64,000 nt of DNA, taken from assembly GCA_045047305.1 (NCBI GenBank), contig JASFYO010000010.1, positions 19,591-83,590 on the forward strand, written 5' to 3'. How positions within the stretch are numbered: the first letter of the stretch is position 1; every line of letters starts with the position of its first letter. Positions 5,950 to 20,213 of the stretch are shown here, piece after piece. This stretch comes from Planctomycetota bacterium. Lineage in GTDB: Bacteria; Planctomycetota; UBA1135. The notes under the pieces are model-generated. The model did not search any database. It had not been told where the DNA came from and was given only the letters and a program-made list of their open reading frames with translations. The position numbers were made by a program, and so were the translations under genes.

Positions 5950-8130
5950 ATGCTCCTCCTAACCGCACTGCTTTCGCCTCTCTTCTTCCCACAAGAGCCA
6001 GCTCCTCAGGAAGCGGAATCCACCGAGGTGCAAACTTCGGAAACGCAACAAAAGCCTTCACTCTATTCCGCCAAGGAAATTGTTGTCATTGCAACTAGGC
6101 TTGCAGAGGATCTTTTTGAGGTCCCTCGTTCGGTCAACATCATTGACGCACAGGACATAAAGGAGCGCACACCACGGACTGCAGCAGAAGCCTTACGCCA
6201 GCAGCCTGGAATCTGGATCCAACGTACTGGGCATTCTGGTGGAGCCCCCATTATTCGCGGTTTTATGGGCAAACGCGTTATCTATATGTTCGATGGCATC
6301 CGTCGCAACACGGCCAGTCTTTTCAACGGCCCAAACGGTTTCTTGGGCACGGTCGACGCCCTCGACATTGACCGGATTGAGGTTCTACGCGGCCCCGGCT
6401 CGGTCCTTTACGGTTCCGATGCGATTGGTGGTGTCATCAACGTGGTCACCAATGAAAAACCTCTCTACACCGATGGTGGCATTTCAACCGGTGGACGCTT
6501 CCATACTCGGTTTGCAAGCGCCGACCATGAAGCCTCCGCCCGCACCGAGGCTTATATTGCTGGCCAGGACGCTTACGCTTTTTTAGGCGCAACACGTCGC
6601 AGTATTGCAGACGTAACTTCCGGGCGCGGAGGTGGCCTTCAAGACCCCAGCTCTTGGCATGAGACCAACTTTGACATCGAAGGTGGATATCGCTTGAGTG
6701 ACAAACAAGACTTACAGATTTTCGCGCAAAGCTATGACCGCCCAGATGGCACTCGCTACGACAAGCCGACACGAGTCACAAGTAACAAACGGAACCTCTA
6801 TGGCCTACGTTATCGTGCCACTGATTTGGCCTTCACCGATCAGGCCACGATGACTGCGTATTACCATCGACAGGAAAAACTAAACGATGATCCAACCCGT
6901 GATTCACTCTCTCTAGACACATCCATGGGGCTCGATCTCCAACTCGAAAACGCCTTAGGCAATGGTGGTTCTCGTCTGGTTTACGGCCTTTCCGCGATTG
7001 CTGACGACGTTCAGAAGAGTAATCCACAAGGCGGTACACGCGACCCCGAAGCCTCTTGGTCGGACGTGGCAGCCTTCGCCCTCACCGAGATGTACGTCAC
7101 TGATACAGTTCGTATCGACGTTGGTGTCCGAGTCGACCGCACGCGCTTGAAGTTTGACAACCTCCCACTCAATGAACTTGACACCCTAGTGCAAGATGCC
7201 ATCAGCAATGGTGAACTTTCTCTTTCTGATCTCGCGCTTGAGAATACGAATACTGCACTAACCGGAGGTATTGGTCTTAGCTGGTTCCTCAACGATGACT
7301 TAGCAGTTTTCACCAACTTAAGCCGAGCATTTCGCGCGCCCAATAAGAGCGACCTATTCAGCTTTGGCCCCTTCACCAATGGCTTTAACGTTCCATCCCC
7401 CAAGGTCGATCCTGAGTCAGCCTGGAGTTACGAACTTGGCATGCGTGGACAGTCTCATGACTCTGCATGGAGCGCGACTGGCTTTTACACCGAACTCGAC
7501 AATGCCATCGTTTCGGAGCCAGGCACTTTTAATGGCGACTCCTTCATTGACCTCGATGGAAACGGAACACTGGATCCGGGCGAAGAAGTTTATGTGAAAA
7601 GGAACTCCACCGACAAGGTTACGGTCCAGGGTGTTGAACTCCAAGGCACCCAATACCTCCCGACTCGCTGGACCCGCTCCTTGTTGAGCCATGGTGTGGT
7701 TTCGGTCTACGGAAATGCCTCTTGGATTGACGGCAAGAATCAAGCTACCGATGGCCCGCCTGACCGTCTCTTCCCGACCAATGCACTACTCGGTGTGCGT
7801 TGGGAAAACTCCCGCAATCCACGGGAACGAACCACTTGGGTTAGTTTTGAATCCTGGATGGTCGATAGCTTTGACGACATTGCGGCTTCCCGTGCTGGCG
7901 ATCCGGCCTTCAAAAATGACCCGCAGGACAGAGGTTCCGGCCTTCTGGCTCCGGGCCCCCGGGTTCCAGGCTTCTCCGTCTTCACCTTGAGGGGTGGAGT
8001 CCAACTCAACCAGCGAGTTTCCTTGACACTCGTTGTCGAAAACCTCGGCGACCGCCTTTACCGCGTAAAAGACTCCCGGATCGACGCACCGGGGATTAAC
8101 TTCGTGGCGGCCGTGGATATCCTTCTCTAA
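5950..8130 (+). CDS. TonB-dependent outer-membrane receptor
   Basis: TonB-box-like EIVVIATR; plug motifs PIIRGF and IDRIEVLRGPGSVLYGSDAIGGVINVVT; AFRAP; C-terminal VENLGDRLYR...APGINF. Confidence 0.95.
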   Translation: MLLLTALLSPLFFPQEPAPQEAESTEVQTSETQQKPSLYSAKEIVVIATRLAEDLFEVPRSVNIIDAQDIKERTPRTAAEALRQQPGIWIQRTGHSGGAPIIRGFMGKRVIYMFDGIRRNTASLFNGPNGFLGTVDALDIDRIEVLRGPGSVLYGSDAIGGVINVVTNEKPLYTDGGISTGGRFHTRFASADHEASARTEAYIAGQDAYAFLGATRRSIADVTSGRGGGLQDPSSWHETNFDIEGGYRLSDKQDLQIFAQSYDRPDGTRYDKPTRVTSNKRNLYGLRYRATDLAFTDQATMTAYYHRQEKLNDDPTRDSLSLDTSMGLDLQLENALGNGGSRLVYGLSAIADDVQKSNPQGGTRDPEASWSDVAAFALTEMYVTDTVRIDVGVRVDRTRLKFDNLPLNELDTLVQDAISNGELSLSDLALENTNTALTGGIGLSWFLNDDLAVFTNLSRAFRAPNKSDLFSFGPFTNGFNVPSPKVDPESAWSYELGMRGQSHDSAWSATGFYTELDNAIVSEPGTFNGDSFIDLDGNGTLDPGEEVYVKRNSTDKVTVQGVELQGTQYLPTRWTRSLLSHGVVSVYGNASWIDGKNQATDGPPDRLFPTNALLGVRWENSRNPRERTTWVSFESWMVDSFDDIAASRAGDPAFKNDPQDRGSGLLAPGPRVPGFSVFTLRGGVQLNQRVSLTLVVENLGDRLYRVKDSRIDAPGINFVAAVDILL

Positions 8131-11100
8131 TGAGAAAGATGGATTTTGCGGGTAGGGTACTTGGGTTGTTCCTACCCGCATTTTTTTTCGGATTGCTCGC
8201 CTCTACCTTGGCGGCACAGGAACCAGATTCTCCATTAACCACCTCTGACGAAAGCCAGCACCATGCTGTTTTTCTCGGAGTCTGGGACCGTGCCCAACCT
8301 TTATTGGATCGAGTGGGCCCGAAGGCAGGTTTCAAGGTCGAATTCCATAACGACCACGACTTAGGACAGCTCAATGTCGAATCTCTCGCCAAGGCAGATC
8401 TCATCTTGGTGCTCAATTTGCGCCCCGAAGAAGCCTCTGCACTGACTCAAGCCTTAAGGGAGCTACGCCGCGCAAGGCCGCAAATACCGATTCTTGCCTT
8501 AGACCAACGCGATTCGCAAAAAGGTTTAGAGAGCAAGTCCTTATTGTCGCGCGACGCCACCTTGCAATCTTATTGGAGGAATGGTGGCAGTGAAAACTAT
8601 CGGCGCATGTTTAGCTACCTGGGCTTCGCCTATCTAAACGACGGCCAAAAACCACTCCCACCAGCAGTCATCCCAGAGAGCGGAATTTGGCATCCTGCTG
8701 CGAGCGATTTATTCACGACTGCGGAATCCTTCCTCGCGTGGCAAAAGAGCCGCCCGAATGCCCCGCAAGGCCCTCACATCACCCTTGCCACGCAACGAAG
8801 CTTTGTATTACTAGAAGATATTAAAGTGCACAAGGCTATGGTGGAAGAACTTGAATCGCGTGGCCTTCAAGTTGCGGTCATGTTCTCTGCCGACCAGAAA
8901 ACTTTTATGGACATGCTGCGGCAATGGAAACCGCAAGTGTTATTAGACGATGGCCACGCATCCCCCATGTTGCTCGCCGGAGCTAAGGAACTTGACATTC
9001 CGCAAATGAAAGTCATTTCCATGCTTCGATCCACCCTTGAAGAATGGCGTGCATCGCCCCTTGGCCTGGAACCGGGCGATGTCGGTTTGCATCTCATTAG
9101 CCAAGAGGTCTATGGCATTGCAGATCCCCAAATCGTAGGTGGAATCGAAGCACACCTTAGTGGATACCGAATCCATCAACCGGAAAAGGAACGCATTGCT
9201 CACATGGTCGACCGCGTTCTTGCATGGCTCGCTTTACGCAGTAAGTCCAATCAAAAAAAACGCATTGCGGTTATTTATTATCACAAATCTCTAGGCGGCG
9301 GCGACTTAACCCGTGGCAGTCCCAGTGGCGCATTCCTCGATGGACCAGAAAGCCTTTACCGTTTCCTTCTCGCCATGCGCGATGCTGGATACAAGGTGGA
9401 CCCGATGCCTAAGAACGCCGAGGAACTCCTCCAGTGGATGCGCCAAAGGGGACGCAACGTGGGCGTTTGGGCAGATGGCGACAAAAAGAAGCTGGTCGAA
9501 GAAGGTGATCCAATCCTTTGGCCGATGGCTTCCTACCGCAAATGGTTCCAAAAGCTACCCGCCAAAACCCAAGAAGAAGTCCTTACCGCTCATGGCTCCC
9601 CGCCTGGCGTGCAAATGGCGTGGCGTGAAAACCAAAAGGACTATTTTATTATCCCACGCATAGATCTGGGTGGAGTCGTTTTACTTCCGCAGCCGGCAAG
9701 AGGGCCTGAGAATGACCCTAAACTCCTGCATGCACGCGATATTCCTCCACCCCATCAGTACCTGGCCACCTATGCGTGGCTGCAAAACGACGCCAAAGTC
9801 GACGCTCTCATTCACTTTGGCACCCACGGTTCCGAATTGCTTCTTCCCCTGCGTGGCTCCGGCTTGGGCCCCACCGATTTTGGTGACCGCATTTTGGGTC
9901 GTCTTCCCAATATCACTCCCTGGATTTTGGACAATGTTGCGGAAGCTACATTAGCCAAACGTCGCGCCTATGCGGTCCTTGTCGATCACCAGGTTCCTGC
10001 TTATGAAGCCTCTGGCCTGTCGCCCGAGCTCCTCCTTTTGCAGGGAGATCTGCAAAAATTTGGCGACATGGAAGATGGCATGGTGCGCAATCGCTACCGC
10101 GACAGCATCCTAGAAACTGCAGCTAAGAATGGTCTTCCCGTCCCTGACCATGCGGAAGATTTCACGGCTGAATCCGCGCGCGAACTCCTAGAGGAAGTTG
10201 AAAATATTCGTGAGCGCGTGGCCCCCATGCACCTTCACATTCTTGGCCAGCCAGCGCAAAGAGATCGCCTCATCGCCATGGCCACAACCATGCTGGGGAC
10301 CGGTTTCCGGCAGGATTATGCGAGTCGCGAAGAAGCCGAAGATGCCGTACGCCATGCCATAGACTCGAATGAGGAATTTCCTGCGGAGAGTTGGCAAGGA
10401 AAGGCGCAAATCTACCAGCAACGTCTCTCCGACACCGATGATGAAATTCTTAATGTCCTGCACGCACTCGATGGTTCCTTTGTGCCACCCGGTCCGGGCA
10501 ATGACCCACTGCGTAATCCCTCTGCGGTCCCCACGGGGCGCAATCTTTACGCCCTAAACCCAGAGGAAATCCCCACCCCTACGGCTTGGGCAATCGGGGT
10601 CGAACTGGGTGACAAATTGCTCGAACGCGGCCCTCTCAAAAAGGTTGCCTTCGATCTCAACGCCTTTGAAACCATGCGCGACTATGGCGTTATGGAGGCT
10701 GAAATCCTCTACCTCATGGGAGTGCGGCCTATTTGGGATGAAAACGGTCTAGCCGCAGAAGTTGAGGTGATTCCGCACGAAGAATTGGGCCGCCCACGGG
10801 TCGACGTATTCATTGCCATTAGTGGCGCGATGCGCGACAACTTCCCTTCCCGTGTGCGCTTGTTTGATCAGGCCGCACGTATGGTTGCCGCTCTAGACGA
10901 GCCAGAAAACGAGGTGCGCATAGCAACCCTAAAACGGGAGCAAGTGCTCCTTGGTGAAGGTTTCGCGCCGATACAAGCCAAGCGTTTATCCGCTGCCCGC
11001 GTATTTGGGCAAAAGCCTGGCGAATATGGAACGCGCATTCTATACATGGTTCCGAAATCTGGTTCCTGGGATTCCAATGAAGAAATTGCCAGTGTTTACA

Positions 11101-12014
11101 TGGACACGATGTCGCATGTCTATACCGAAGGAATTTGGGGTGAAAAAGTGGAGGGCCTTTACCGCCATGCCATAGCCGGTTCTGATTTAGTGCTACGGAA
11201 TTGGGCGTCGAATATGATGAGTCCACTATCGAATCATCATGTTTACGAATATGCCGGTGGACTTAGCCTTGCGCTAACCTCGGTGAATGGCACACAACCC
11301 GAATTGCTCATTAACGACGTACGCGAAAACGCCAAGTTACGTGAATTTGATTCGGTCATGCGCGAAGAATTCCATGCCACCCTCCTGAATGCCAAATGGG
11401 TCAAAGGGATGAAGGAAAACGGCTATGCTGGAGCCGGGCAAATGGCCGAATTGGTCAAGAACAGTTTTGGCTGGGAAACGGTACGTGATGGCTCGGTTGG
11501 GCAAGCCATGTGGGATGGCATCGACGAGGTCTACCTCCAAGATCGTTATCAACTTGACCTTGAAACCTGGTTTCAAGATCAAAATCCGCATGCCTTCCAA
11601 GAAATCGCTGCGACCATGCTTGAGGCCAACCGTAAAGAATATTGGGAGGCCAGCGAAGAACGTCTGCAGCAGATCGCAAAAGACTATGCACAATCCGTTG
11701 CTGATTATCGATTGTCAGGAGGCATTGTCGATGGCGGGAATAAACACCTCCAAGAAGCCGTCCAAAGGTTTCTCAATGCTGCTGGCGAGTTAGAACTCCT
11801 TGATGCCTATCAAGCTTCCATTCAAGAGAGTGAAGCCTCGAATGGCGAAAACCGTGTCAAGGGCATGCAGCTTGCAAAAGCGCCCACGGAAGAGCCCAAG
11901 GCCCAACCCGCCCAAACTTCTGGCGCAAGGGATTGGCTCTTCCCGCTCATCGCTGGAGCTGGAGCTATTGTGGTGTTCCTTGTAGGCTTCACCCGTAGAT
12001 ACCGTAAGAGTTAA
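8130..12014 (+). CDS. CobN/magnesium-chelatase-family protein with signal peptide and C-terminal membrane anchor (HmuS/BtuS-like)
   Basis: KKRIAVIYY, PPHQYLATYAWL, HFGTHG, EATLAKRR, PGPGNDPLRNP-VPTGRNLY, LGRPRVDV, ISGAMRDNF, HVYEYAGGL, KWVKGMKENGYAGA; N-terminal ...TLAA|QEP and C-terminal TM followed by RRYRKS. Confidence 0.92.
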   Translation: MRKMDFAGRVLGLFLPAFFFGLLASTLAAQEPDSPLTTSDESQHHAVFLGVWDRAQPLLDRVGPKAGFKVEFHNDHDLGQLNVESLAKADLILVLNLRPEEASALTQALRELRRARPQIPILALDQRDSQKGLESKSLLSRDATLQSYWRNGGSENYRRMFSYLGFAYLNDGQKPLPPAVIPESGIWHPAASDLFTTAESFLAWQKSRPNAPQGPHITLATQRSFVLLEDIKVHKAMVEELESRGLQVAVMFSADQKTFMDMLRQWKPQVLLDDGHASPMLLAGAKELDIPQMKVISMLRSTLEEWRASPLGLEPGDVGLHLISQEVYGIADPQIVGGIEAHLSGYRIHQPEKERIAHMVDRVLAWLALRSKSNQKKRIAVIYYHKSLGGGDLTRGSPSGAFLDGPESLYRFLLAMRDAGYKVDPMPKNAEELLQWMRQRGRNVGVWADGDKKKLVEEGDPILWPMASYRKWFQKLPAKTQEEVLTAHGSPPGVQMAWRENQKDYFIIPRIDLGGVVLLPQPARGPENDPKLLHARDIPPPHQYLATYAWLQNDAKVDALIHFGTHGSELLLPLRGSGLGPTDFGDRILGRLPNITPWILDNVAEATLAKRRAYAVLVDHQVPAYEASGLSPELLLLQGDLQKFGDMEDGMVRNRYRDSILETAAKNGLPVPDHAEDFTAESARELLEEVENIRERVAPMHLHILGQPAQRDRLIAMATTMLGTGFRQDYASREEAEDAVRHAIDSNEEFPAESWQGKAQIYQQRLSDTDDEILNVLHALDGSFVPPGPGNDPLRNPSAVPTGRNLYALNPEEIPTPTAWAIGVELGDKLLERGPLKKVAFDLNAFETMRDYGVMEAEILYLMGVRPIWDENGLAAEVEVIPHEELGRPRVDVFIAISGAMRDNFPSRVRLFDQAARMVAALDEPENEVRIATLKREQVLLGEGFAPIQAKRLSAARVFGQKPGEYGTRILYMVPKSGSWDSNEEIASVYMDTMSHVYTEGIWGEKVEGLYRHAIAGSDLVLRNWASNMMSPLSNHHVYEYAGGLSLALTSVNGTQPELLINDVRENAKLREFDSVMREEFHATLLNAKWVKGMKENGYAGAGQMAELVKNSFGWETVRDGSVGQAMWDGIDEVYLQDRYQLDLETWFQDQNPHAFQEIAATMLEANRKEYWEASEERLQQIAKDYAQSVADYRLSGGIVDGGNKHLQEAVQRFLNAAGELELLDAYQASIQESEASNGENRVKGMQLAKAPTEEPKAQPAQTSGARDWLFPLIAGAGAIVVFLVGFTRRYRKS

Positions 12015-12580
12015 TGCTGGAACTCCTCCCTCTGCTATCGCAAGCCCTCTTGTGGCCCGTCATCATCTTGCTTTTCCTCGGGATTGCAGCGACCTTAACC
12101 ATGCTTGGTGGCTTATGCGGAGAATTTTTGCAACGCAGGAAATGGCGCCAAGCAAACGCCACATTAGTGCAGAATTTAATGGAGGACACACAGCGCCAAG
12201 TCCCCTTGGCGGAATTGGAACAGGCCCTCCGTTGGCGCAGAGTGCAAGCAACCTTTTCCTCTCCCAACCCAGACCTCGATAAAATCCTAGACGATTATCA
12301 ACTACGGGTGCAAAAGGATTTATCGCGGCCTAATATGTTGGTACGCCTGGGCCCCATGCTTGGACTGGCTGGCACACTCATTCCACTGGGACCGGGTTTA
12401 ACCGCACTATCTAGCGGAGATGTAAACACTTTATCTAGCCAATTGGTCATCGCTTTCACCTCCACCGTTCTCGGGCTTTTTGTGGGCGGATTAAGCTATG
12501 TCATCCATTCGGTGCAACGCAACTGGTATGCACAAGACCTAGGCGATCTAGAATTCCTCTTCCAAAGGCGCGGAGCATGA
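12014..12580 (+). CDS. MotA/TolQ/ExbB proton-channel family protein (HmuU-like)
   Basis: LVRLGPMLGLAGTLIPLGPGL...LVIAFTSTVLGL; TAATG coupling to the chelatase gene. Confidence 0.9.
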   Translation: MLELLPLLSQALLWPVIILLFLGIAATLTMLGGLCGEFLQRRKWRQANATLVQNLMEDTQRQVPLAELEQALRWRRVQATFSSPNPDLDKILDDYQLRVQKDLSRPNMLVRLGPMLGLAGTLIPLGPGLTALSSGDVNTLSSQLVIAFTSTVLGLFVGGLSYVIHSVQRNWYAQDLGDLEFLFQRRGA

Positions 12581-12918
12581 GAAGCAAGCGCGAGTTAATC
12601 ACCCAGGAGGAAGATCCGCTTACCGGATTTGCCAATCTATTCGATATTGGCATCGTGTTCTCCTTAGGTTTTATGGTGTCCCTCATTACCTATCTTGGAT
12701 TGCCTGAATTACTTGGCAACCAAGATATGGTTTTGGTCAAGAATCCAGGAACCGACAGCATGGAAATGATTATCAAGAAAGGCGAACACCTTGAGAAACT
12801 CCAACCTACCGGCAGCAGTCTGGCGGGAGACGGTGGACAGAAACTCGGCACGGCTTACCGCCTCCCCTCAGGAGAGGTGGTTTATGTTCCAGAAACGGCC
12901 GCGGACAGCGAAGGGTAA
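12577..12918 (+). CDS. DUF2149 protein (ExbD-like, HmuV-like)
   Basis: EDPLTGFANLFDIGIVF, VKNPG...MEMIIKKG, G-KLGTAYRL-SGEVVYVPE; ATGA overlap with upstream gene. Confidence 0.88.
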   Translation: MRSKRELITQEEDPLTGFANLFDIGIVFSLGFMVSLITYLGLPELLGNQDMVLVKNPGTDSMEMIIKKGEHLEKLQPTGSSLAGDGGQKLGTAYRLPSGEVVYVPETAADSEG

Positions 12919-12932
12919 AAAGTCTTGGAGAC

Positions 12933-15900
12933 CTAAGAGTTGGTCTCCATTTCCTTCTCGACCACGACCTCGCGATCAGCCGCAGCGCCTTGATCCAAAC
13001 GAGCACGCGCTGGGTCCACGGCCTCGGCGTTGGAAAGATCAAGCTCTCCTTCACCTGCCACTTGATCGAGTTGCACGCTCACTACCATGGAGACGCCACG
13101 TTTACGCATGGTGACACCAAAGAGGCGTTCACAACGCGACATGGTGATGCGGTTGTGGGTCACGACCAAGAACTGCGTAGTCCCCGTGAAGTCGCCCAGC
13201 ACGTCTACGAAGCGCTCTACGTTGGCATCGTCCAGGGCGGCATCGACTTCGTCTAAGAGACAGAATGGCGACGGGCGCGATTGGAAAACCGCAAGTAGCA
13301 GTGCAAGAGCGGTCAAGGTGCGTTCACCACCCGACAGAAGGTTGATCGAACGCAATTCCTTGCCAGGAGGGCGCACCGTGATTTCAATACCTGCATCGAG
13401 CGGATCGACATCGGCCTCGAGTTGAATCGAAGCTTTACCGCCACGGAATAAGCGGCGGAAGATGTGCTCGAACTCCCCTTGCACCTTATTGAACGTCTCC
13501 ACAAAGCGCTCCCGACACTTGATATCGAGTTCCTCGAGGGTGTCCTCTAAGTTGGTTTTAGCTCCAACGAGGTCATCACGCTCACGGATGAGAAAGGATT
13601 CACGCTCTTGACGATCTTCTAATTCCTGAACGGCATCGAGATTCACCGATCCAATGCTCTCGATTTTCTTCTTCAGCTGATGCAATTCCTGGCGCCAAGC
13701 ATAGGCATCGGCATCTTCTGGAAGTGGAATGGAAGAATCAATCTCTAGGCTGCGTGCCAGGTCTTCGAGCGGCTGCCCAAACTCCTCCACCACACCACGA
13801 ATCAGCTCATCCAACTGCATTTGCACCTTTTGCACATCCAAGGCCAGTGCTTGACGCTGCTCAAGCAAGCGCTCCATGTGTCCACTTCCATCTGCGTTGC
13901 GCGCTCTTGCACCATGCAAAACTTCCGTAGCACGTTGCAATTGCGTTGCAGCATCATCCACACGCTCTGCGATTTCTGCGCGACGCTCTAACAAAGTGGA
14001 ACGTTCGACACGCGCCTTCTCCGCTTCTTCGCGCAAGGCCACACAACCCTTTTCCAAGTCGGTGATTTCTGATTTAAGGCTACCGTGCTCGCGGGTTTGC
14101 TTCTCGGTGCGAGTCAAAAGTTCTGCATGACGCTGGCGCCAATGCTTAAACTCGGTTTCCAAACCAGAATGCCCAACTCGAGCTTCTTGTTGGGATTGCG
14201 ATGCGCTTTCAAAGGCTGCGTCCTTTTCATCTGCAACACTCTGTAGCTCTTCCAATTCTTCATTGCAACGCACCCGATTTGCCTCCACGGCATCGCGGCG
14301 TTCTGCGGCCTCCTCCTCTGCCTTGGTGGTAGTTTCGACGACCTCCGCCAACTGTTTGGCTTCCTGGTCCATTGCTGCCAGCTCTTCGGCCAAGCCTTTC
14401 GCACGACGTTCTACTCCTTGGAAGCGTGCGCGGCAATCCTCACGCACTGCGACTGCTTTGCGCAAAACCACATCCGCTTCCCGTGCTGCAATCTCTGCGC
14501 TCACAAGTGACTTTGCTACTGCTTCTTCAAGGGCAAAAGCACCATCAAACTCGATTTGAGCTTCTTTCAAAGTGCTTGCGGCCAAGTCGCGCTCATTCCG
14601 ACGTGCAAGACGACCAGTGGAGTCCTCGGCGAGCACTCCGCAACGTAGGTAGCCTCGGCCCTGAATGGCGCCGTTCGCACTGAGGAATAGTGCTTGTGGA
14701 TGCTTCGCTGCAAGAGCTTCGGCATCGGCGCTTTCGTCGACACAGTAAACCGCACCCAAGCGGGCGCACAAGGCATCGCATGCGGCTTCATTGCCGGTCA
14801 ATAAAGAACGTAAGGAACGGGTTCCACCGATCTCTATTGGGGTTTCCGCTTGCCCTTGCAACGGGAAGAAAAAGTCATACATGCCATCGGCCAAATTCTT
14901 GGCAGCACTGCGGTCGTCTAACCAAATCGCATGCTGTAAACGGCCAAGCAAGTTTTCCAATAAACGGTCCCATGGTTGCTCAATCTGAACATCCTCCAGA
15001 ATCCAACTTCCGACGCCTTCGTGTTTCGCCTCTAAGAATTTGCGCAGATAGTCGGGGACTCCTGGCATTTCTTCGTCGATGGCTTGGAAGGCTTCCAGAC
15101 GTGCGGAAGCTGAGGCGCGGCGTTGGCGTGCTTCATGTGCAACTTTGGCATAGCCGCTGCGCTCATCCTTGAGCCGCGAGACTTCCTCTGCGGTAGTACT
15201 GCCTGCTTCTTGCGCCTTCTTGGCTGCGGTTTCAAGACCATTCAAAGTCAGGCCGAGTTCGCCAAACTCCTTTTCGGAAGAAGCGCTCTCTGCAGAAATC
15301 TCCACCCGACGACGCTTTAACGCCGACTGACCGCCTTCGGCCTCACTACGCCGTTTCGCGGCATTTGCAACTTGGTTATTCCATCGCGTGCGCTCTTGCA
15401 AGGCATCTAGTACCGTGCGACGCAACCCCTCCATTCGATCCCGCTGAGTGCGACGTGCCTCACGAGCTTCTGCGAAAGCGGCTTCGGCTTCTTTCAAAAC
15501 CGCTGCGGTCTTCTCCAGACCTTCAGTGAGACGGGTCTGCTCTTGCAATAGGCCTGAGGCTGCATCGGCATCCTCTTGTTTCTCACTGGTAAGCGAAGTC
15601 AAACGCAGGCGGTCACGCTGGATCCGTGTTTCGCCTTCACTGGCACGTGTTTCTAAACCGTGCACCCGCTCTTCTAAACCGGCGGCCTTCTCTTTAATCT
15701 CACCTGCCTCGGAGCGCAATGCGTCATGACGCTCACGCAAGGTTGACTCTTCCTTTTCCAACTCCGCTAACTTCGCCTGGACTTGGTCGCGCTCAACACG
15801 CAATCCTTCAACCTGGTTTTCCAGCTCCGCTTCTTTCGCACGCAGCTCTTGGTCTTGTTGCGACCAAGCCGCGTTATCGCTCAAGGCGAAACGCACGCGC

Positions 15901-16574
15901 AGTTCACGATGGCGGTCGCGCATCTCGACAAAGCGTTTGGCTTTACCAGCCTGCAAACGCAAAGAACGCACAGCCCGAGAAACTTCCTCGAGTACGTCTT
16001 CGACGCGCGACAAATCTTGATCGACCCGCTTAAGCTTCAATTTCGCTTCATGCTTGCGTGCCTTGTAGCGCGAAATACCAGCTGCTTCTTCAAACACGCT
16101 GCGGCGTTCATCTGGGTTCGCAGCAAGTACGGCGTCGATTTTGCCTTGCGCCAACACCATGTAGCCTTGCACGCCAAGGCCGGTATCTAAAAGCACTTCG
16201 CGCACATCCTTGCGCCGCACTTTGCGGCCGTGAAGCAGATACTCTGCATCGCCTCCTGCAAACAAGCGGCGCCCAACCGCAAGTTCTCCACCAGGTTCCA
16301 CAATTTTGCCTTCTGGATCTCCCAGAATGACCTCCACCATTGCGTATGGTGCCGCTGCTCGACCTTCAGCACCTTTGAAGATGACGTCGTCCATAGCATC
16401 GGCGCGCAATGCTTTGGCAGAGCGCTCTCCCATGACCCAAAGCAGGGCATCTACCACATTGGACTTGCCGCAACCATTGGGGCCGACAATACCAGTTAAA
16501 CCACGCTCAACAGGGATGACGGTGCGGTCGGCGAAGGACTTAAAGCCTTCCAGTTCGATTCGTTTCAGGTACAT
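12933..16574 (-). CDS. smc: Chromosome segregation protein SMC
   Basis: GFKSFAD, Walker A GPNGCGKSN, FEEAAGISRY, long coiled coils, LSGGE signature, LLDEVDAALD Walker B, VVTHN. Confidence 0.97.
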   Translation of the reverse strand: MYLKRIELEGFKSFADRTVIPVERGLTGIVGPNGCGKSNVVDALLWVMGERSAKALRADAMDDVIFKGAEGRAAAPYAMVEVILGDPEGKIVEPGGELAVGRRLFAGGDAEYLLHGRKVRRKDVREVLLDTGLGVQGYMVLAQGKIDAVLAANPDERRSVFEEAAGISRYKARKHEAKLKLKRVDQDLSRVEDVLEEVSRAVRSLRLQAGKAKRFVEMRDRHRELRVRFALSDNAAWSQQDQELRAKEAELENQVEGLRVERDQVQAKLAELEKEESTLRERHDALRSEAGEIKEKAAGLEERVHGLETRASEGETRIQRDRLRLTSLTSEKQEDADAASGLLQEQTRLTEGLEKTAAVLKEAEAAFAEAREARRTQRDRMEGLRRTVLDALQERTRWNNQVANAAKRRSEAEGGQSALKRRRVEISAESASSEKEFGELGLTLNGLETAAKKAQEAGSTTAEEVSRLKDERSGYAKVAHEARQRRASASARLEAFQAIDEEMPGVPDYLRKFLEAKHEGVGSWILEDVQIEQPWDRLLENLLGRLQHAIWLDDRSAAKNLADGMYDFFFPLQGQAETPIEIGGTRSLRSLLTGNEAACDALCARLGAVYCVDESADAEALAAKHPQALFLSANGAIQGRGYLRCGVLAEDSTGRLARRNERDLAASTLKEAQIEFDGAFALEEAVAKSLVSAEIAAREADVVLRKAVAVREDCRARFQGVERRAKGLAEELAAMDQEAKQLAEVVETTTKAEEEAAERRDAVEANRVRCNEELEELQSVADEKDAAFESASQSQQEARVGHSGLETEFKHWRQRHAELLTRTEKQTREHGSLKSEITDLEKGCVALREEAEKARVERSTLLERRAEIAERVDDAATQLQRATEVLHGARARNADGSGHMERLLEQRQALALDVQKVQMQLDELIRGVVEEFGQPLEDLARSLEIDSSIPLPEDADAYAWRQELHQLKKKIESIGSVNLDAVQELEDRQERESFLIRERDDLVGAKTNLEDTLEELDIKCRERFVETFNKVQGEFEHIFRRLFRGGKASIQLEADVDPLDAGIEITVRPPGKELRSINLLSGGERTLTALALLLAVFQSRPSPFCLLDEVDAALDDANVERFVDVLGDFTGTTQFLVVTHNRITMSRCERLFGVTMRKRGVSMVVSVQLDQVAGEGELDLSNAEAVDPARARLDQGAAADREVVVEKEMETNS

Positions 16575-16580
16575 GAAAAA

Positions 16581-18278
16581 TTAGGATTCACGCGCAGCAG
16601 ATGGGCGCCGGTCTGGAGGGTTCGAGAGACGGACGATGAGATGACTCTCGAGTAAAGCAGCGGCCGGAAGTTCCAGCCATGGGGCGGTGTCTAGAGCCAT
16701 GGACAACATGTCATCCGACGATGCCCCGGGCATCCAGCCACAAGTATGTTCTTTAGGTCCAAAAATCCCACTGCGCTCTGCCAGACGGAATCCGGCTGCA
16801 CGAGCATGCGGAGGACAGGTATATTCCAAACGCAAGCCAGCCTTTTTGGTGGCGCGTTCAAAGCGGTCACGCAATGCCAAAATAAGACGTCTGGAACGGA
16901 CACTGCGTAAGGCAGAATCTGGAAAAAGGATGTCGAGTGCTTTGGGCAAGCCAGAGGGAGTCAGATGAACTCGTGGATGTTCGCCTGCTTTGGCACGATC
17001 ACAAATTGCAGCGAGGGTGCCACAAGTCAAATCCAAAGATTCTTGAGTCTGCGCCAAAAAGTCATCCACCTGCAAAGGCCCAGCCTCCACGGCGGCTTGG
17101 ATGAGGTCTATCGCAGCACCCTGATTCAAGCGACGCTCACTCAACTCTGCAGCCAAAGGATAACGGGTTGGTGGTTGCCACTGCACCGAAGTTTTCCCTA
17201 GCGCCACCAGTGCGAGAGCCGTTTTGCGCTCAGCATGCAATAACGGATGCGCCGGAATACGATGCCAAACCCCAGCCTCTGCCCATTTCTGCGCCAGCTC
17301 TAGGGAGGATGTGGCGAAACGTAAATGCATCCCGGGGCCAGTAAGCCATTGCGGCGCATTCACCGACAAACTTCCATGCGCACGGGAAGCTGGCCAAAAC
17401 ACCTGTACCTCATGCGCGCGCAAACGGGCTTCTGCCACTCGTTTCCAGAAGGCGGTTTCGGATTCTTCCGGCTCTGGATGCAACCATAACCGCAATGGAC
17501 GCATCCAATCTCCTAGAGCAAGCAGGTCGAAACGTCCTGCGCGCCAAGCTTCAAGCTGCGCTGCGGAAAGGACTTCCTCCAAGGCAAACCGAGCCAACAA
17601 TTCACTGCCTAGCAGTGGACGCGCATCTTGGCCCTGCGGACCTAAACTCGGCAAACCGGGAGCGCCAACTTCAGAAGGCATACATTCACCCCCGAGCCAC
17701 GCACGCAACTGGCGACGTTCAATCCCCAGGCTTTCTGCATGCATCGGGCCACCGCGCAGCCCCATGGTGCGGCATTCATTTTCGGTTAACGCACTGACCA
17801 ACCGCCCAGTTAAATGTTTGCTACCAATCGCTACGAGGCGACGTTCAACGCGCCTGGCAACGCTGCGTGCAACACTGCTCTCCAAATACAGATCACGCAT
17901 AAGGGAGCGTGCGACACGCGCGCGATCCCAGAGGTTCGAGACGGCATCCTTGCCTGAAGGCGTAAACACCCGCAAACCAGCCTTAATCTCTGATTCTTCC
18001 ATGCGGTACCAGGCATAGGCATCGGCCGCCTGAGTACATTCGTAAAGCCGCAGGACAGCAACCACCTCTTCAGCCAGACGTTCGCTTTCAATGCGACCCA
18101 TTGGGTTCGATGCGCGTACCCAAACAGTTTCTACAAACTGCTCGGCAAGCAAGGAGTGATCTCCTCCAGCAGCAAGCGCGTTTGCAATCGATTCGCTTAA
18201 GCGGTGACGGTCGAAACTTTGTTCGCTGCCATCACGTTTCACGACACGGCGGATATCAGCGTTTTTGGCCACTTCCAC
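16581..18278 (-). CDS. Tandem ATP-cone protein with a degenerate class III ribonucleotide reductase (NrdD)-like core lacking the glycyl-radical domain
   Basis: Cone 1 [16 protein letters not shown]...AYAWYR; cone 2 [10 protein letters not shown]...ARRVERRL...[13 protein letters not shown]; NrdD-like blocks [46 protein letters not shown]; no C-terminal CxxC pairs or RxxGY loop. Confidence 0.75.
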
Positions 18279-18726
18279 CTTCGAGGAATGGTTTTAGTTC
18301 CGTGACAAACTGTTCAACGTCTTTAAATTCCCGATAGACCGAGGCAAAACGAACATAGGCCACTTGGTCGAGCTTTTTCAACTCTTCCATGACTAGTTGC
18401 CCGATGTATTTGCTGCCGACTTCGCGGTCGAACATCTCGGTCAGGCGGCGTTCAATTCCAGCAGTAATCTTCTCCAACTCCTCCATCGATACTGGACGCT
18501 TCTCACACGCCTTCAGGATCCCTTTCAGAATCTGGCCACGATCAAATGGAACGCGCGAGCCATCCTTCTTCACCACGCGCAACGGAGTTTCCTCCATCCG
18601 CTCGTAGGTTGTGAAGCGGCGACTGCAATCCATGCATTCCCGGCGACGGCGAATGGAGAACCCATCAGCGGCGGAACGCGAGTCAATGACTCGGTCATGA
18701 TCTGCTTGGCAATAAGGACAGCGCAT
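18256..18726 (-). CDS. nrdR: Transcriptional repressor NrdR
   Basis: [36 protein letters not shown] cone, [15 protein letters not shown]. Confidence 0.98.
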
Positions 18727-18768
18727 CGGACAACCCGTGGTAGAGCTCGGGTTACAGAACCCTTTTTA

Positions 18769-18784
18769 CCACAACACCTAGTGG
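18769..18784. promoter_or_regulatory. NrdR box upstream of nrdR
   Basis: CCACAACACCTAGTGG, within the palindrome ACCAC-N8-GTGGT, fits the consensus acaCwAtATaTwGtgt. A weaker copy, GGACAACCCGTGGTAG (18728-18743), lies 41 bp away next to the start codon. Confidence 0.7.
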
Positions 18785-18830
18785 TGTTCTAGGCATAGAG
18801 GGGCTTGAGACCCTTTTATTTTACAACTTC

Positions 18831-20213
18831 CTATTTTCCTATGCAAAAATCAGCGAACAAGCGGTCCAGGACGTCCTCAGGGGTAGCCTCGCCCACCAAT
18901 TCTGCGAGACTGGCCAGAGCGCTGCGGATGTCCTCGGCCACTAGGTCCTGATGACCGCCACCCGCATCCCATTCTTGCCCCTGCTGGATGCTTAAAATGG
19001 CCTCACGAAGCGCCTGTTGATGCCTGGCGGAATGTCGCGCGGCCTGTAAATGAGCATCTTCCGATTGCTGAAATGCCTCAAAGGTGACGGACTCGAGCCG
19101 CTCCACGCCATCGCCAGTTTTGGAGCTTATTTCCACTTCGGGCACTTCACCAAGCAAGCCTTGAAGCTTTTGCTTTAACTCCATCGAAGCCGATCCAAGC
19201 GCGCGGTCCGCTTGAGACCACAGGATTACGACTGGAGCTTCAGGAAGTGCCACAGGTAAAGTCGAAGGCTCCTCATTGTTTGGAAGACAAAACCACACAA
19301 GATCCAGAGCAGCATCTTCTTGCTGCGCCAACTTACGTGCGGAGGCGTCATGCACATCCACCGCCTCGCCGCCAAAACCAGGAAAGTCGACCAGGGTGAT
19401 AGGAATTTCGAGTTGTGGAATTCGCCAGTTGGCTTCCCGTCGGTCTCGGGTGGTACCGGCCTGCTGACTAATCAAACTTGGCTTACCACTGAGTGTTTGG
19501 AACAAACTGCTCTTGCCCGCATTGGGTGGCCCAAACAAACCAACGCGAAATTGTCCACCATGGCGCAATTGCCGATTCTCCTCTGCAGCAAGCCCTTGGC
19601 GTAAAACATCCAGCGCTTGGACTAGGAAATGCCCGACTTCCCCTGGCTCCAAATCTTGGCTGTCGCCTTCTTCAAAATCCAGGCCGGCTTCCAACTCGAC
19701 TAAGGCGGAAAGCAAAACATCGCGGCATTCCGTGAGCGGTGCGGCAAGGCTCCCACCAAGTAAACGTGCTGCAGATAGTGCGCCACCCTGGGAACGAGAT
19801 TGGACTAACTCGAGCACCGCTTCGGCTTGGGTCAAATCAAGGCGCCCACGCAGGAAAGCACGTCGGGTGAACTCACCAGGTTCCGCTAAGCGGGCACCGC
19901 GGGCTTGGAGCTGCTCCATCAAAGCATCGAGGATAGGCATGGAGCCAGGCAGATGAATTTCTATGACATCCTCCCCCGTGGCCGATGCCGGCCCCTCGAA
20001 ACAAAGAATCTGCAAGTCGACGGAAACACCGGGTAGCACTTCACACGGAGAAAAAAACACTCCACGCTTTCCAGAGAGCACATTTACATCCGCCGGCAAA
20101 TAGTGGTTTGCCTGCTCAAGAAGGCCAATGCCGCTTAAGCGAAGGACTGCCCTCGGCGCCGGACCACGTGGAGTAGCCGGCGCAACAATGACATCTAGCT
20201 CAGGATTTAGCAC
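18831..20213 (-). CDS. mnmE: tRNA modification GTPase MnmE (TrmE)
   Basis: [64 protein letters not shown], C-terminal FCIGK. Confidence 0.95.
   Translation of the reverse strand: [460 protein letters not shown]

Follow-up and report, generated by a model that had tools for sequence, protein, structure and literature searches.

The 64,000-nucleotide stretch analysed here (the window; contig JASFYO010000010.1 of the Planctomycetota assembly GCA_045047305.1, positions 19,591 to 83,590) carries, between nrdR and smc, a gene for a 565-aa protein that we call X. X is almost certainly a pseudoenzyme. It descends from a class III ribonucleotide reductase (RNR), NrdD, with two ATP cones, which is still found intact, together with nrdG, in the same slot elsewhere in Planctomycetota. 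Its catalytic elements are gone, and it is kept under purifying selection rather than decaying. It is probably a nucleotide-binding regulator of some kind. The whole statement, namely that a dead two-cone NrdD under purifying selection acts as a nucleotide-status adaptor for replication or segregation and is co-expressed with SMC under NrdR, is in our view evenly balanced between right and wrong.

The open reading frame (ORF) of X (16581..18278, reverse strand) was delimited and interpreted from sequence, predicted structure and alignments, and is free of internal stops. It shares 23 nt with the end of nrdR, and its stop codon lies 6 nt ahead of the smc ATG at 16574, in agreement with the coordinates given by an earlier reading of the sequence, the first-pass annotation. 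The genes on either side are those named there, since both pass their NCBIfam cut-offs: nrdR (18256..18726, reverse strand, 156 aa; TIGR00244 208.9 bits, cut-off 124.65) and smc (12933..16574, reverse strand, 1213 aa, starting 6 nt past the X stop; TIGR02168 851.7 bits, cut-off 567.35). X consists of an ATP cone at residues 11-95 (cone 1; 17994..18248, reverse strand; Pfam PF03477, E 1e-8, and alignment column counts), a degenerate second cone at about residues 103-171 (17766..17972, reverse strand; from cone comparison, dN/dS and column counts) and an eroded RNR alpha/beta barrel at about residues 214-551, in which the finger loop is deleted (16626..17639, reverse strand; from the VIA structure match and alignment).

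The descent of the barrel is not apparent from X by itself. Pfam, NCBIfam and PDB sequence searches with X alone found nothing beyond the N-terminal cone 1, and a hidden Markov model of the intact barrel missed X in its own genome. A database search with X returned 50 homologues of 38-100% identity, of which the named ones are from Planctomycetota; their lengths are 541-576 aa, the sole exception being a 474-aa partial sequence. In what follows f1 is the family of the window, and other f-numbers are likewise family labels. X is present at E ≤ 2e-39 in 37 of the 42 other f1 genomes and as a fragment in one more, and was not found in four (79-90% complete).

Homology of the barrel becomes visible only through longer orthologues together with profile-profile or structure comparison. 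These orthologues, mostly 650-750 aa, occupy the nrdR-smc slot in other families of the order. Pfam NRDD was matched at E ≤ 0.1 by 27 of the 38 that were aligned, and a profile made from them reaches the T. maritima NrdD barrel (E 0.0012) and, when run over 251 genomes of the phylum, recovered two-cone NrdDs. The f1 profile aligned by hhalign with the intact same-slot NrdDs at 99.5% (E 4e-23, 490 columns). The one intact same-slot copy tested (L140) passes TIGR02487, and all five activase-like genes tested beside intact or Cys-retaining copies pass TIGR02495.

The AlphaFold2 model of X (pLDDT 82.3, pTM 0.62) has as its best structure match the T. maritima NrdD 4con (VIA Z 19.0, root-mean-square deviation (rmsd) 4.0, 341 residues aligned), followed among class III enzymes by P. 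copri 8p2d (Z 17.8, rmsd 3.5, 330 aligned). The class I enzyme 2zlf is close behind (Z 17.1, rmsd 4.0, 319 aligned); classes III and I are not separable by structure alone, and it is the sequence that settles the class. The first-pass annotation had picked out four blocks of X as NrdD-like. All four align to the NrdD motifs that it named, and the likeness extends beyond the cones, the barrel being RNR-like in both the structure and the profile comparison. In a tree of X, every family with more than one sampled member makes up a clade, and a tree of NrdR and SMC together repeats the same family groups, which is consistent with vertical inheritance. The X tree also clusters the fast-evolving dead copies together, possibly by long-branch attraction.

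The defining elements of NrdD were taken from excerpts of PMC11226230 (including HxHD and NxN as substrate motifs) and PMC9669993. The large alignment, which took 25 of the 49 f1 members, shows how completely they have been removed. The finger loop is deleted in X, and its Cys is found in 0/25 f1 members, compared with a double Cys in 15/15 intact copies. The betaA Cys is Arg in X, and is Cys in 8/25 f1 members and 15/15 intact copies. The NxN flap and HxHD are replaced in X and its family. The first-pass annotation was right that the Zn site, with its CxxC pairs, is missing, as is the Gly loop; the Gly column is empty in 25/25, 38/38 and 66/66 dead copies. It had also found no nrdG in the window, and extending the search to the whole genome (87.7% complete) gave none above cut-off, the best TIGR02495 score being 45.6 against 131.15. 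That genome yielded no separate intact nrdD and no separate glycyl-radical domain, and across the order NrdD or a separate Gly-loop gene was found in 0/73 genomes, with the positive control detected. The window's genome encodes nrdAB of class I as well as a class II-like gene. Of the 64 genomes whose slot copy is dead, a class I/II RNR is present in 63, and the remaining one has an intact second NrdD.

X therefore fits neither an active NrdD nor a split class III RNR, in which the core is intact and the Gly loop is encoded by a separate gene. It is scarcely credible that X is still an enzyme, whether as the core of a split system working with a separate glycyl-radical protein or as a barrel with new chemistry. 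Such a system does apparently occur in the phylum (family f47, described below), the betaA Cys persists in the eight f1 members just mentioned, and the finger segment holds a Cys in 18 of 38 long orthologues. However, the order-wide lack of a Gly-loop gene and the lack of an NrdG over cut-off in the genome stand against this, as do the finger-loop deletion in 25/25 and the loss of HxHD and NxN; and inspection by eye of the invariant residues of X revealed no obvious catalytic set.

Selection on X was measured as the ratio of nonsynonymous to synonymous substitution (dN/dS, Nei-Gojobori). The median over 17 of 19 f1 pairs is 0.076 (range 0.033-0.45), two pairs having been dropped for saturated dS and many others being near saturation; the comparison medians are 0.047 for smc, 0.020 for nrdR and 0.092 for mnmE. 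The top value comes from a pair in which smc likewise gives 0.38. Gene order is also conserved. X has nrdR and smc on either side in 29 of 30 f1 loci, and in the other the contig ends. For the long-form loci a strict test finds both neighbours in 34/40 and 6/6, and a looser table has both in the other six. Of 66 dead copies elsewhere in the phylum, 64 lie next to nrdR; the fetched flank includes smc for 53, and for 34 smc is no more than 300 nt away. The first-pass proposal of a retained pseudo-enzyme is thus upheld; its further suggestion, that X might be a scaffold acting with NrdR or SMC, is a conjecture. A decaying copy peculiar to one lineage, which it had considered as the way to be wrong, is contradicted both by dN/dS far below 1 and by the orthologues in the order, which also lack the Gly loop.

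A related explanation is that the ORF merely fills space in the operon or is slowly decaying, and is retained only to carry translation from nrdR to smc. The tight overlaps at both ends would suit this, and so would the repeated shrinkage and outright loss described below and one f1 member (G122) that looks frameshifted. Nevertheless it is very improbable and largely refuted: dN/dS is near that of smc and below that of mnmE, even lone cones show no variation in the cone residues that lie outside the overlap, and nrdR and smc abut where X has been lost, hence no spacer is needed.

The wider survey covered 100 loci of the phylum, hand-picked rather than drawn at random from 150 listed best matches; families with weak cone-level matches only (e.g. 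f13, f63, f90) lie outside it. Of these, 98 could be classified: 15 are intact, 17 have the Zn site without the Gly loop and 66 have neither. Four loci were left out of the alignments, namely L143 (intact, frameshifted), L204 (contig end), L077 (reads into smc) and L102 (no cone-1 start). The states of the slot form a series, from the intact enzyme through loss of the Gly loop and erosion of the barrel to a lone ATP cone and finally loss of the gene. The tree of NrdR and SMC (111 of 154 loci; FastTree, with weak deep support) requires at least three changes between intact and dead states.

The lone cone is best seen in the sister family f9, where a protein of about 126-177 aa occupies the slot in 76 of 81 genomes (stand-alone cones L265-L273 and L292-L321). 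It follows nrdR in 30/30 loci and precedes smc in 29/30, and the 20 closest pairs give dN/dS values of 0.07-0.25. All nine aligned f9 cones share invariant K, R, D, G, E and K residues; the one f9 cone tested against NCBIfam gave no match at E 1e-6. Several other loci are worth recording. L226-L230 (f20, f43) hold shorter dead forms, of 474-492 and 378 aa, in which both cones are present and the barrel is cut short; genomes G195 and G183 have a further NrdD elsewhere. The dead copy of L228 is followed by a nucleoside-diphosphate kinase gene. In f42 an NrdG-like gene stands beside a dead NrdD (L172:5058-5831 and L174:2877-3665; 122 and 119 bits against a cut-off of 131). An AmmeMemoRadiSam radical SAM (S-adenosylmethionine) gene is often found downstream of nrdD/nrdG in the slot (L136, L158, L171 and others).

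What the dead copies retain is above all the cones. In intact enzymes the barrel is more conserved than the cones (0.78/0.67 versus 0.66/0.62). The two large dead groups show identities to the intact enzymes of 0.41-0.49 in the cones and 0.13-0.19 in the barrel, and for f1 the values are 0.25-0.28 versus 0.10-0.11; erosion has thus touched the cones of dead copies much less than the barrel. The first-pass annotation had described two ATP cones. This stands for cone 1, which is the only full Pfam ATP-cone in X, and is only partly true of cone 2, which is degenerate and lacks the KRDG cap and the last helix. Cone 2 matches cone 1 with 95% probability when the comparison is made family-wide, and with 18% when only f1 is used. 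Cone 2 of the intact ancestors is likewise capless.

Cone 1 of X keeps K-R-D-G, F, R and Y-R where nucleotide-binding cones are conserved. K, R, D, G, the aromatic residue, the second basic residue and the terminal Arg are kept in 25/25 f1 members. By their spacing, these residues would correspond to the nucleotide-contacting residues of S. coelicolor NrdR (excerpt of PMC9110341). On the strength of this conservation, cone 1 likely binds ATP/dATP.

Regulation of the operon was approached through 178 regions upstream of nrdR, in which a de novo search yielded a 16-bp palindrome scoring at least 8 bits in 117 of them (4.85 after shuffling) and in 0/52 mnmE upstream regions. Matches did occur in 6/17 metallophosphoesterase and 1/2 yidC control regions; some of the metallophosphoesterase genes are divergent from nrdR and may share its region. 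Of the box pairs, 51/55 are spaced by 31, 32, 41 or 42 bp, the spacings (15-16 or 25-26 bp spacer) reported for NrdR boxes (excerpt of PMC12051234). The nrdR-X-smc operon has such a pair upstream, made up of a strong predicted NrdR box (18769..18784, no strand assigned; 19.1 bits) and a weak predicted second box (18728..18743, no strand assigned; 3.3 bits) separated by a 25-bp spacer, which belongs to a class described in the same excerpt. At the place of the weak box, five congeners score 10-12 bits. The best pairs genome-wide lie before the class II-like (nrdJ-like) gene, nrdA, one unidentified site and the nrdR-X-smc operon. Apart from these named genes, a predicted pair in the genome lies at G000:C34:5518-5564, in front of unnamed genes. 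Judged from these predicted boxes, nrdR-X-smc is likely a single NrdR-repressed unit, and the box pairs ahead of it would place smc under ATP/dATP-sensing control.

A hint at a partner comes from a short motif. QxxLF is a general clamp-binding consensus (excerpts of PMC12309361 and PMC5397184). Among long orthologues, 34 of 42 carry it in a loop of the barrel, where 3.4 would be expected; for related representatives, largely of the same lineage, the figures are 67 of 77 and 5.1. It is found at the C-terminus in f60 (7/7) and in f19/f53/f76/f85 (6/6), and in the inter-cone linker in f61/f95 (4/6). Intact enzymes carry it in 3/15 (2.5 expected). That it sits at three different places suggests that this linear motif was gained more than once. 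Looser variants of the clamp motif were sought in the window's family, and none is conserved.

The role that we propose for X is as follows. Once cone 1 had bound ATP/dATP, X would change its oligomeric state or its contacts with partners, by analogy with ATP cones in RNRs and NrdR. It would then pass nucleotide status to replication or segregation proteins, while NrdR would control nrdR-X-smc and so co-express X with SMC. The partner is suggested by linkage and by the clamp-type motifs of relatives only. In its most specific form X would be a pseudo-RNR checkpoint, in which the cone reads ATP/dATP and signals to SMC or, by way of the motifs gained at the three positions, to the sliding clamp, and NrdR ties smc to the same signal. 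This is offered tentatively, as a possibility that is more doubtful than otherwise.

A number of observations weigh against a replication or segregation partner. The motif is found in 1/49 members of the window's own family (4.3 expected) and in 0/30 lone cones, and the linker motif of f42 lacks the Q. SMC is already provided with ScpA and ScpB, and with both present, X as a substitute SMC subunit is ruled out. The smc gene lies outside the fetched flank in 13 of the 66 dead copies, and none was seen in the fetched flank in f20 and f29. In f60 X lies away from nrdR and has no box (0/7 adjacent; nrdR is elsewhere in 5/5 genomes searched). The gene is dispensable in some lineages, nrdR abutting smc in 4/4 loci of f7 and f3, and the order nrdR-nrdD-...-smc is already present in loci with an intact enzyme (in 8/15 the fetched flank contains smc). 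Gene order is thus older than the loss of catalysis and outlives the loss of the gene, and adjacency alone is a poor guide to the partner. The upstream regions that the box matrix scores are also those on which it was trained; its ranking of the nrdJ-like and nrdA promoters first is independent of that training. The best-supported link between deoxyribonucleoside triphosphate (dNTP) sensing and smc appears, from the predicted boxes, to be transcriptional, and does not need X.

Sensing by cone 1 is itself open to question in the window's family, which has lost the second conserved Arg at the end of the cone. Furthermore, pooled f1 dN/dS is highest in cone 1 (0.133) versus 0.044 in cone 2 and 0.03 in the linker; cone 2 and the linker after it are the most constrained part of X in f1. 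These values would fit an X that, in f1, has given up nucleotide sensing for a structural or scaffold role, with selection directed mainly at cone 2, at the linker and at the surface of the barrel. The low identity of cone 1 to intact enzymes (down to 0.25) is in keeping with such a change, as is the finding that inner cones of tandem pairs can be non-binding (excerpt of PMC9669993). We consider it improbable, in that scaffolding alone would not require the cone 1 residues to be kept in 25/25 members.

Somewhat less unlikely is that X is a nucleotide-binding modulator within the RNR network, where its cone pairs with that of NrdR (acting on repression) or of class I NrdA (acting on activity) and smc is a passenger. 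Adjacency to nrdR is tighter than to smc (64 versus 53 of the 66 dead copies), a lone cone is enough in f9, the NrdA of this genome carries a cone, and ATP cones work through protein-protein contacts (excerpt of PMC9669993). On the other hand, a modulator of this kind has no need of the clamp-type motifs, nrdR is kept where X is lost, and in f60 the two genes are apart.

The closest known relative of X is the double-Cys class III NrdD with two cones (L140; relatives 4con, 8p2d and T4 1h78), with which it shares the cone-cone-barrel layout, the colinear motifs and the slot behind nrdR. It differs from these enzymes in lacking the betaA and finger-loop Cys, the NxN flap, HxHD, the Zn site, the Gly loop and nrdG, and in being about 250 residues shorter. 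Betaherpesviruses have inactive homologues of the RNR large subunit, which are derived from class I. Human cytomegalovirus UL45 and murine cytomegalovirus M45 resemble X in that a dead RNR has been repurposed for protein interactions (excerpt of PMC5469499). These proteins are viral and act on host signalling, whereas X is chromosomal, class III-derived and vertically inherited, and has kept an ATP cone. NrdR is likewise a non-catalytic ATP-cone protein that senses ATP/dATP (excerpt of PMC9110341); X lacks its Zn-ribbon DNA-binding domain, and the cone of X came from NrdD. Finally, multi-cone RNRs with non-binding inner cones, such as P. aeruginosa NrdA, also have a degenerate second cone behind a functional first one (excerpt of PMC9669993), but there the enzyme is active, whereas X is dead and its cone 2 strongly constrained.

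No report of a chromosomal bacterial dead RNR that had been repurposed was found in the full texts searched, which were mainly open papers, and a prior mention is possible. Automatic clusters name some relatives ATP-cone/NRDD proteins, or anaerobic RNR, without noting their inactivity, so finding such a relative gives no grounds to credit a genome with making dNTPs anaerobically. The dead RNR spans many Planctomycetota lineages and offers the full series from active enzyme to lone cone, that is, an allosteric domain outliving its enzyme. The NrdR boxes on smc, the clamp-type motifs and the 140-aa minimal form provide handles on how dNTP status might reach replication or segregation. If X does signal to the clamp or to SMC, it would be a sensor of dNTP status dedicated to the chromosome, and the whole a bacterial nucleotide-pool checkpoint made from a dead anaerobic RNR.

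Altered class III systems were seen alongside. In all four f47 genomes, one of them complete, the only NrdD retains the Zn site and every catalytic Cys but has no Gly loop; class I/II RNRs are absent, and a separate gene of about 110 codons elsewhere in the genome carries the Gly loop. The NrdD cores are at L151, L158, L165 and L233 and the Gly-loop genes at L239-L241 and L258 (e.g. L241:1285-1617, forward strand); NrdG follows the core where tested. By sequence this is an apparent split class III RNR. G161 (f21) appears to have the same layout, but a class I/II RNR is also present. In f40 (L263, L264; G180, G230) an intact NrdD is accompanied by a second small Gly-loop ORF; the open frames measure about 130 aa and may encode a spare-part radical protein. 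The NrdDs of L136 and L149 have Cys, Zn site and adjacent NrdG intact, and their Gly-loop segment aligns with, apparently, Ala or Ser for Gly. No separate Gly-loop gene was found in these two genomes, and the proteins may be related to aminoacyl radical enzymes (excerpt of PMC11528403).

As to the surroundings of the operon, a sigma70-like promoter match lies just upstream of the boxes (18818..18847, reverse strand); it is a consensus match only (9/12), from a scan giving 4 matches where 2.0 are expected by chance. A terminator-like hairpin at the smc stop (12926..12949, no strand assigned; hairpin scan) faces a convergent operon. The SMC of the window gave no Pfam hinge-domain match at E ≤ 1, though it passed TIGR02168, and its hinge looks divergent. 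The convergent genes (8130-12918, forward strand) encode a CobN/BchH-like chelatase, under all cut-offs, followed by two small unnamed ORFs; as a guess, this chelatase might supply B12 for the class II RNR.

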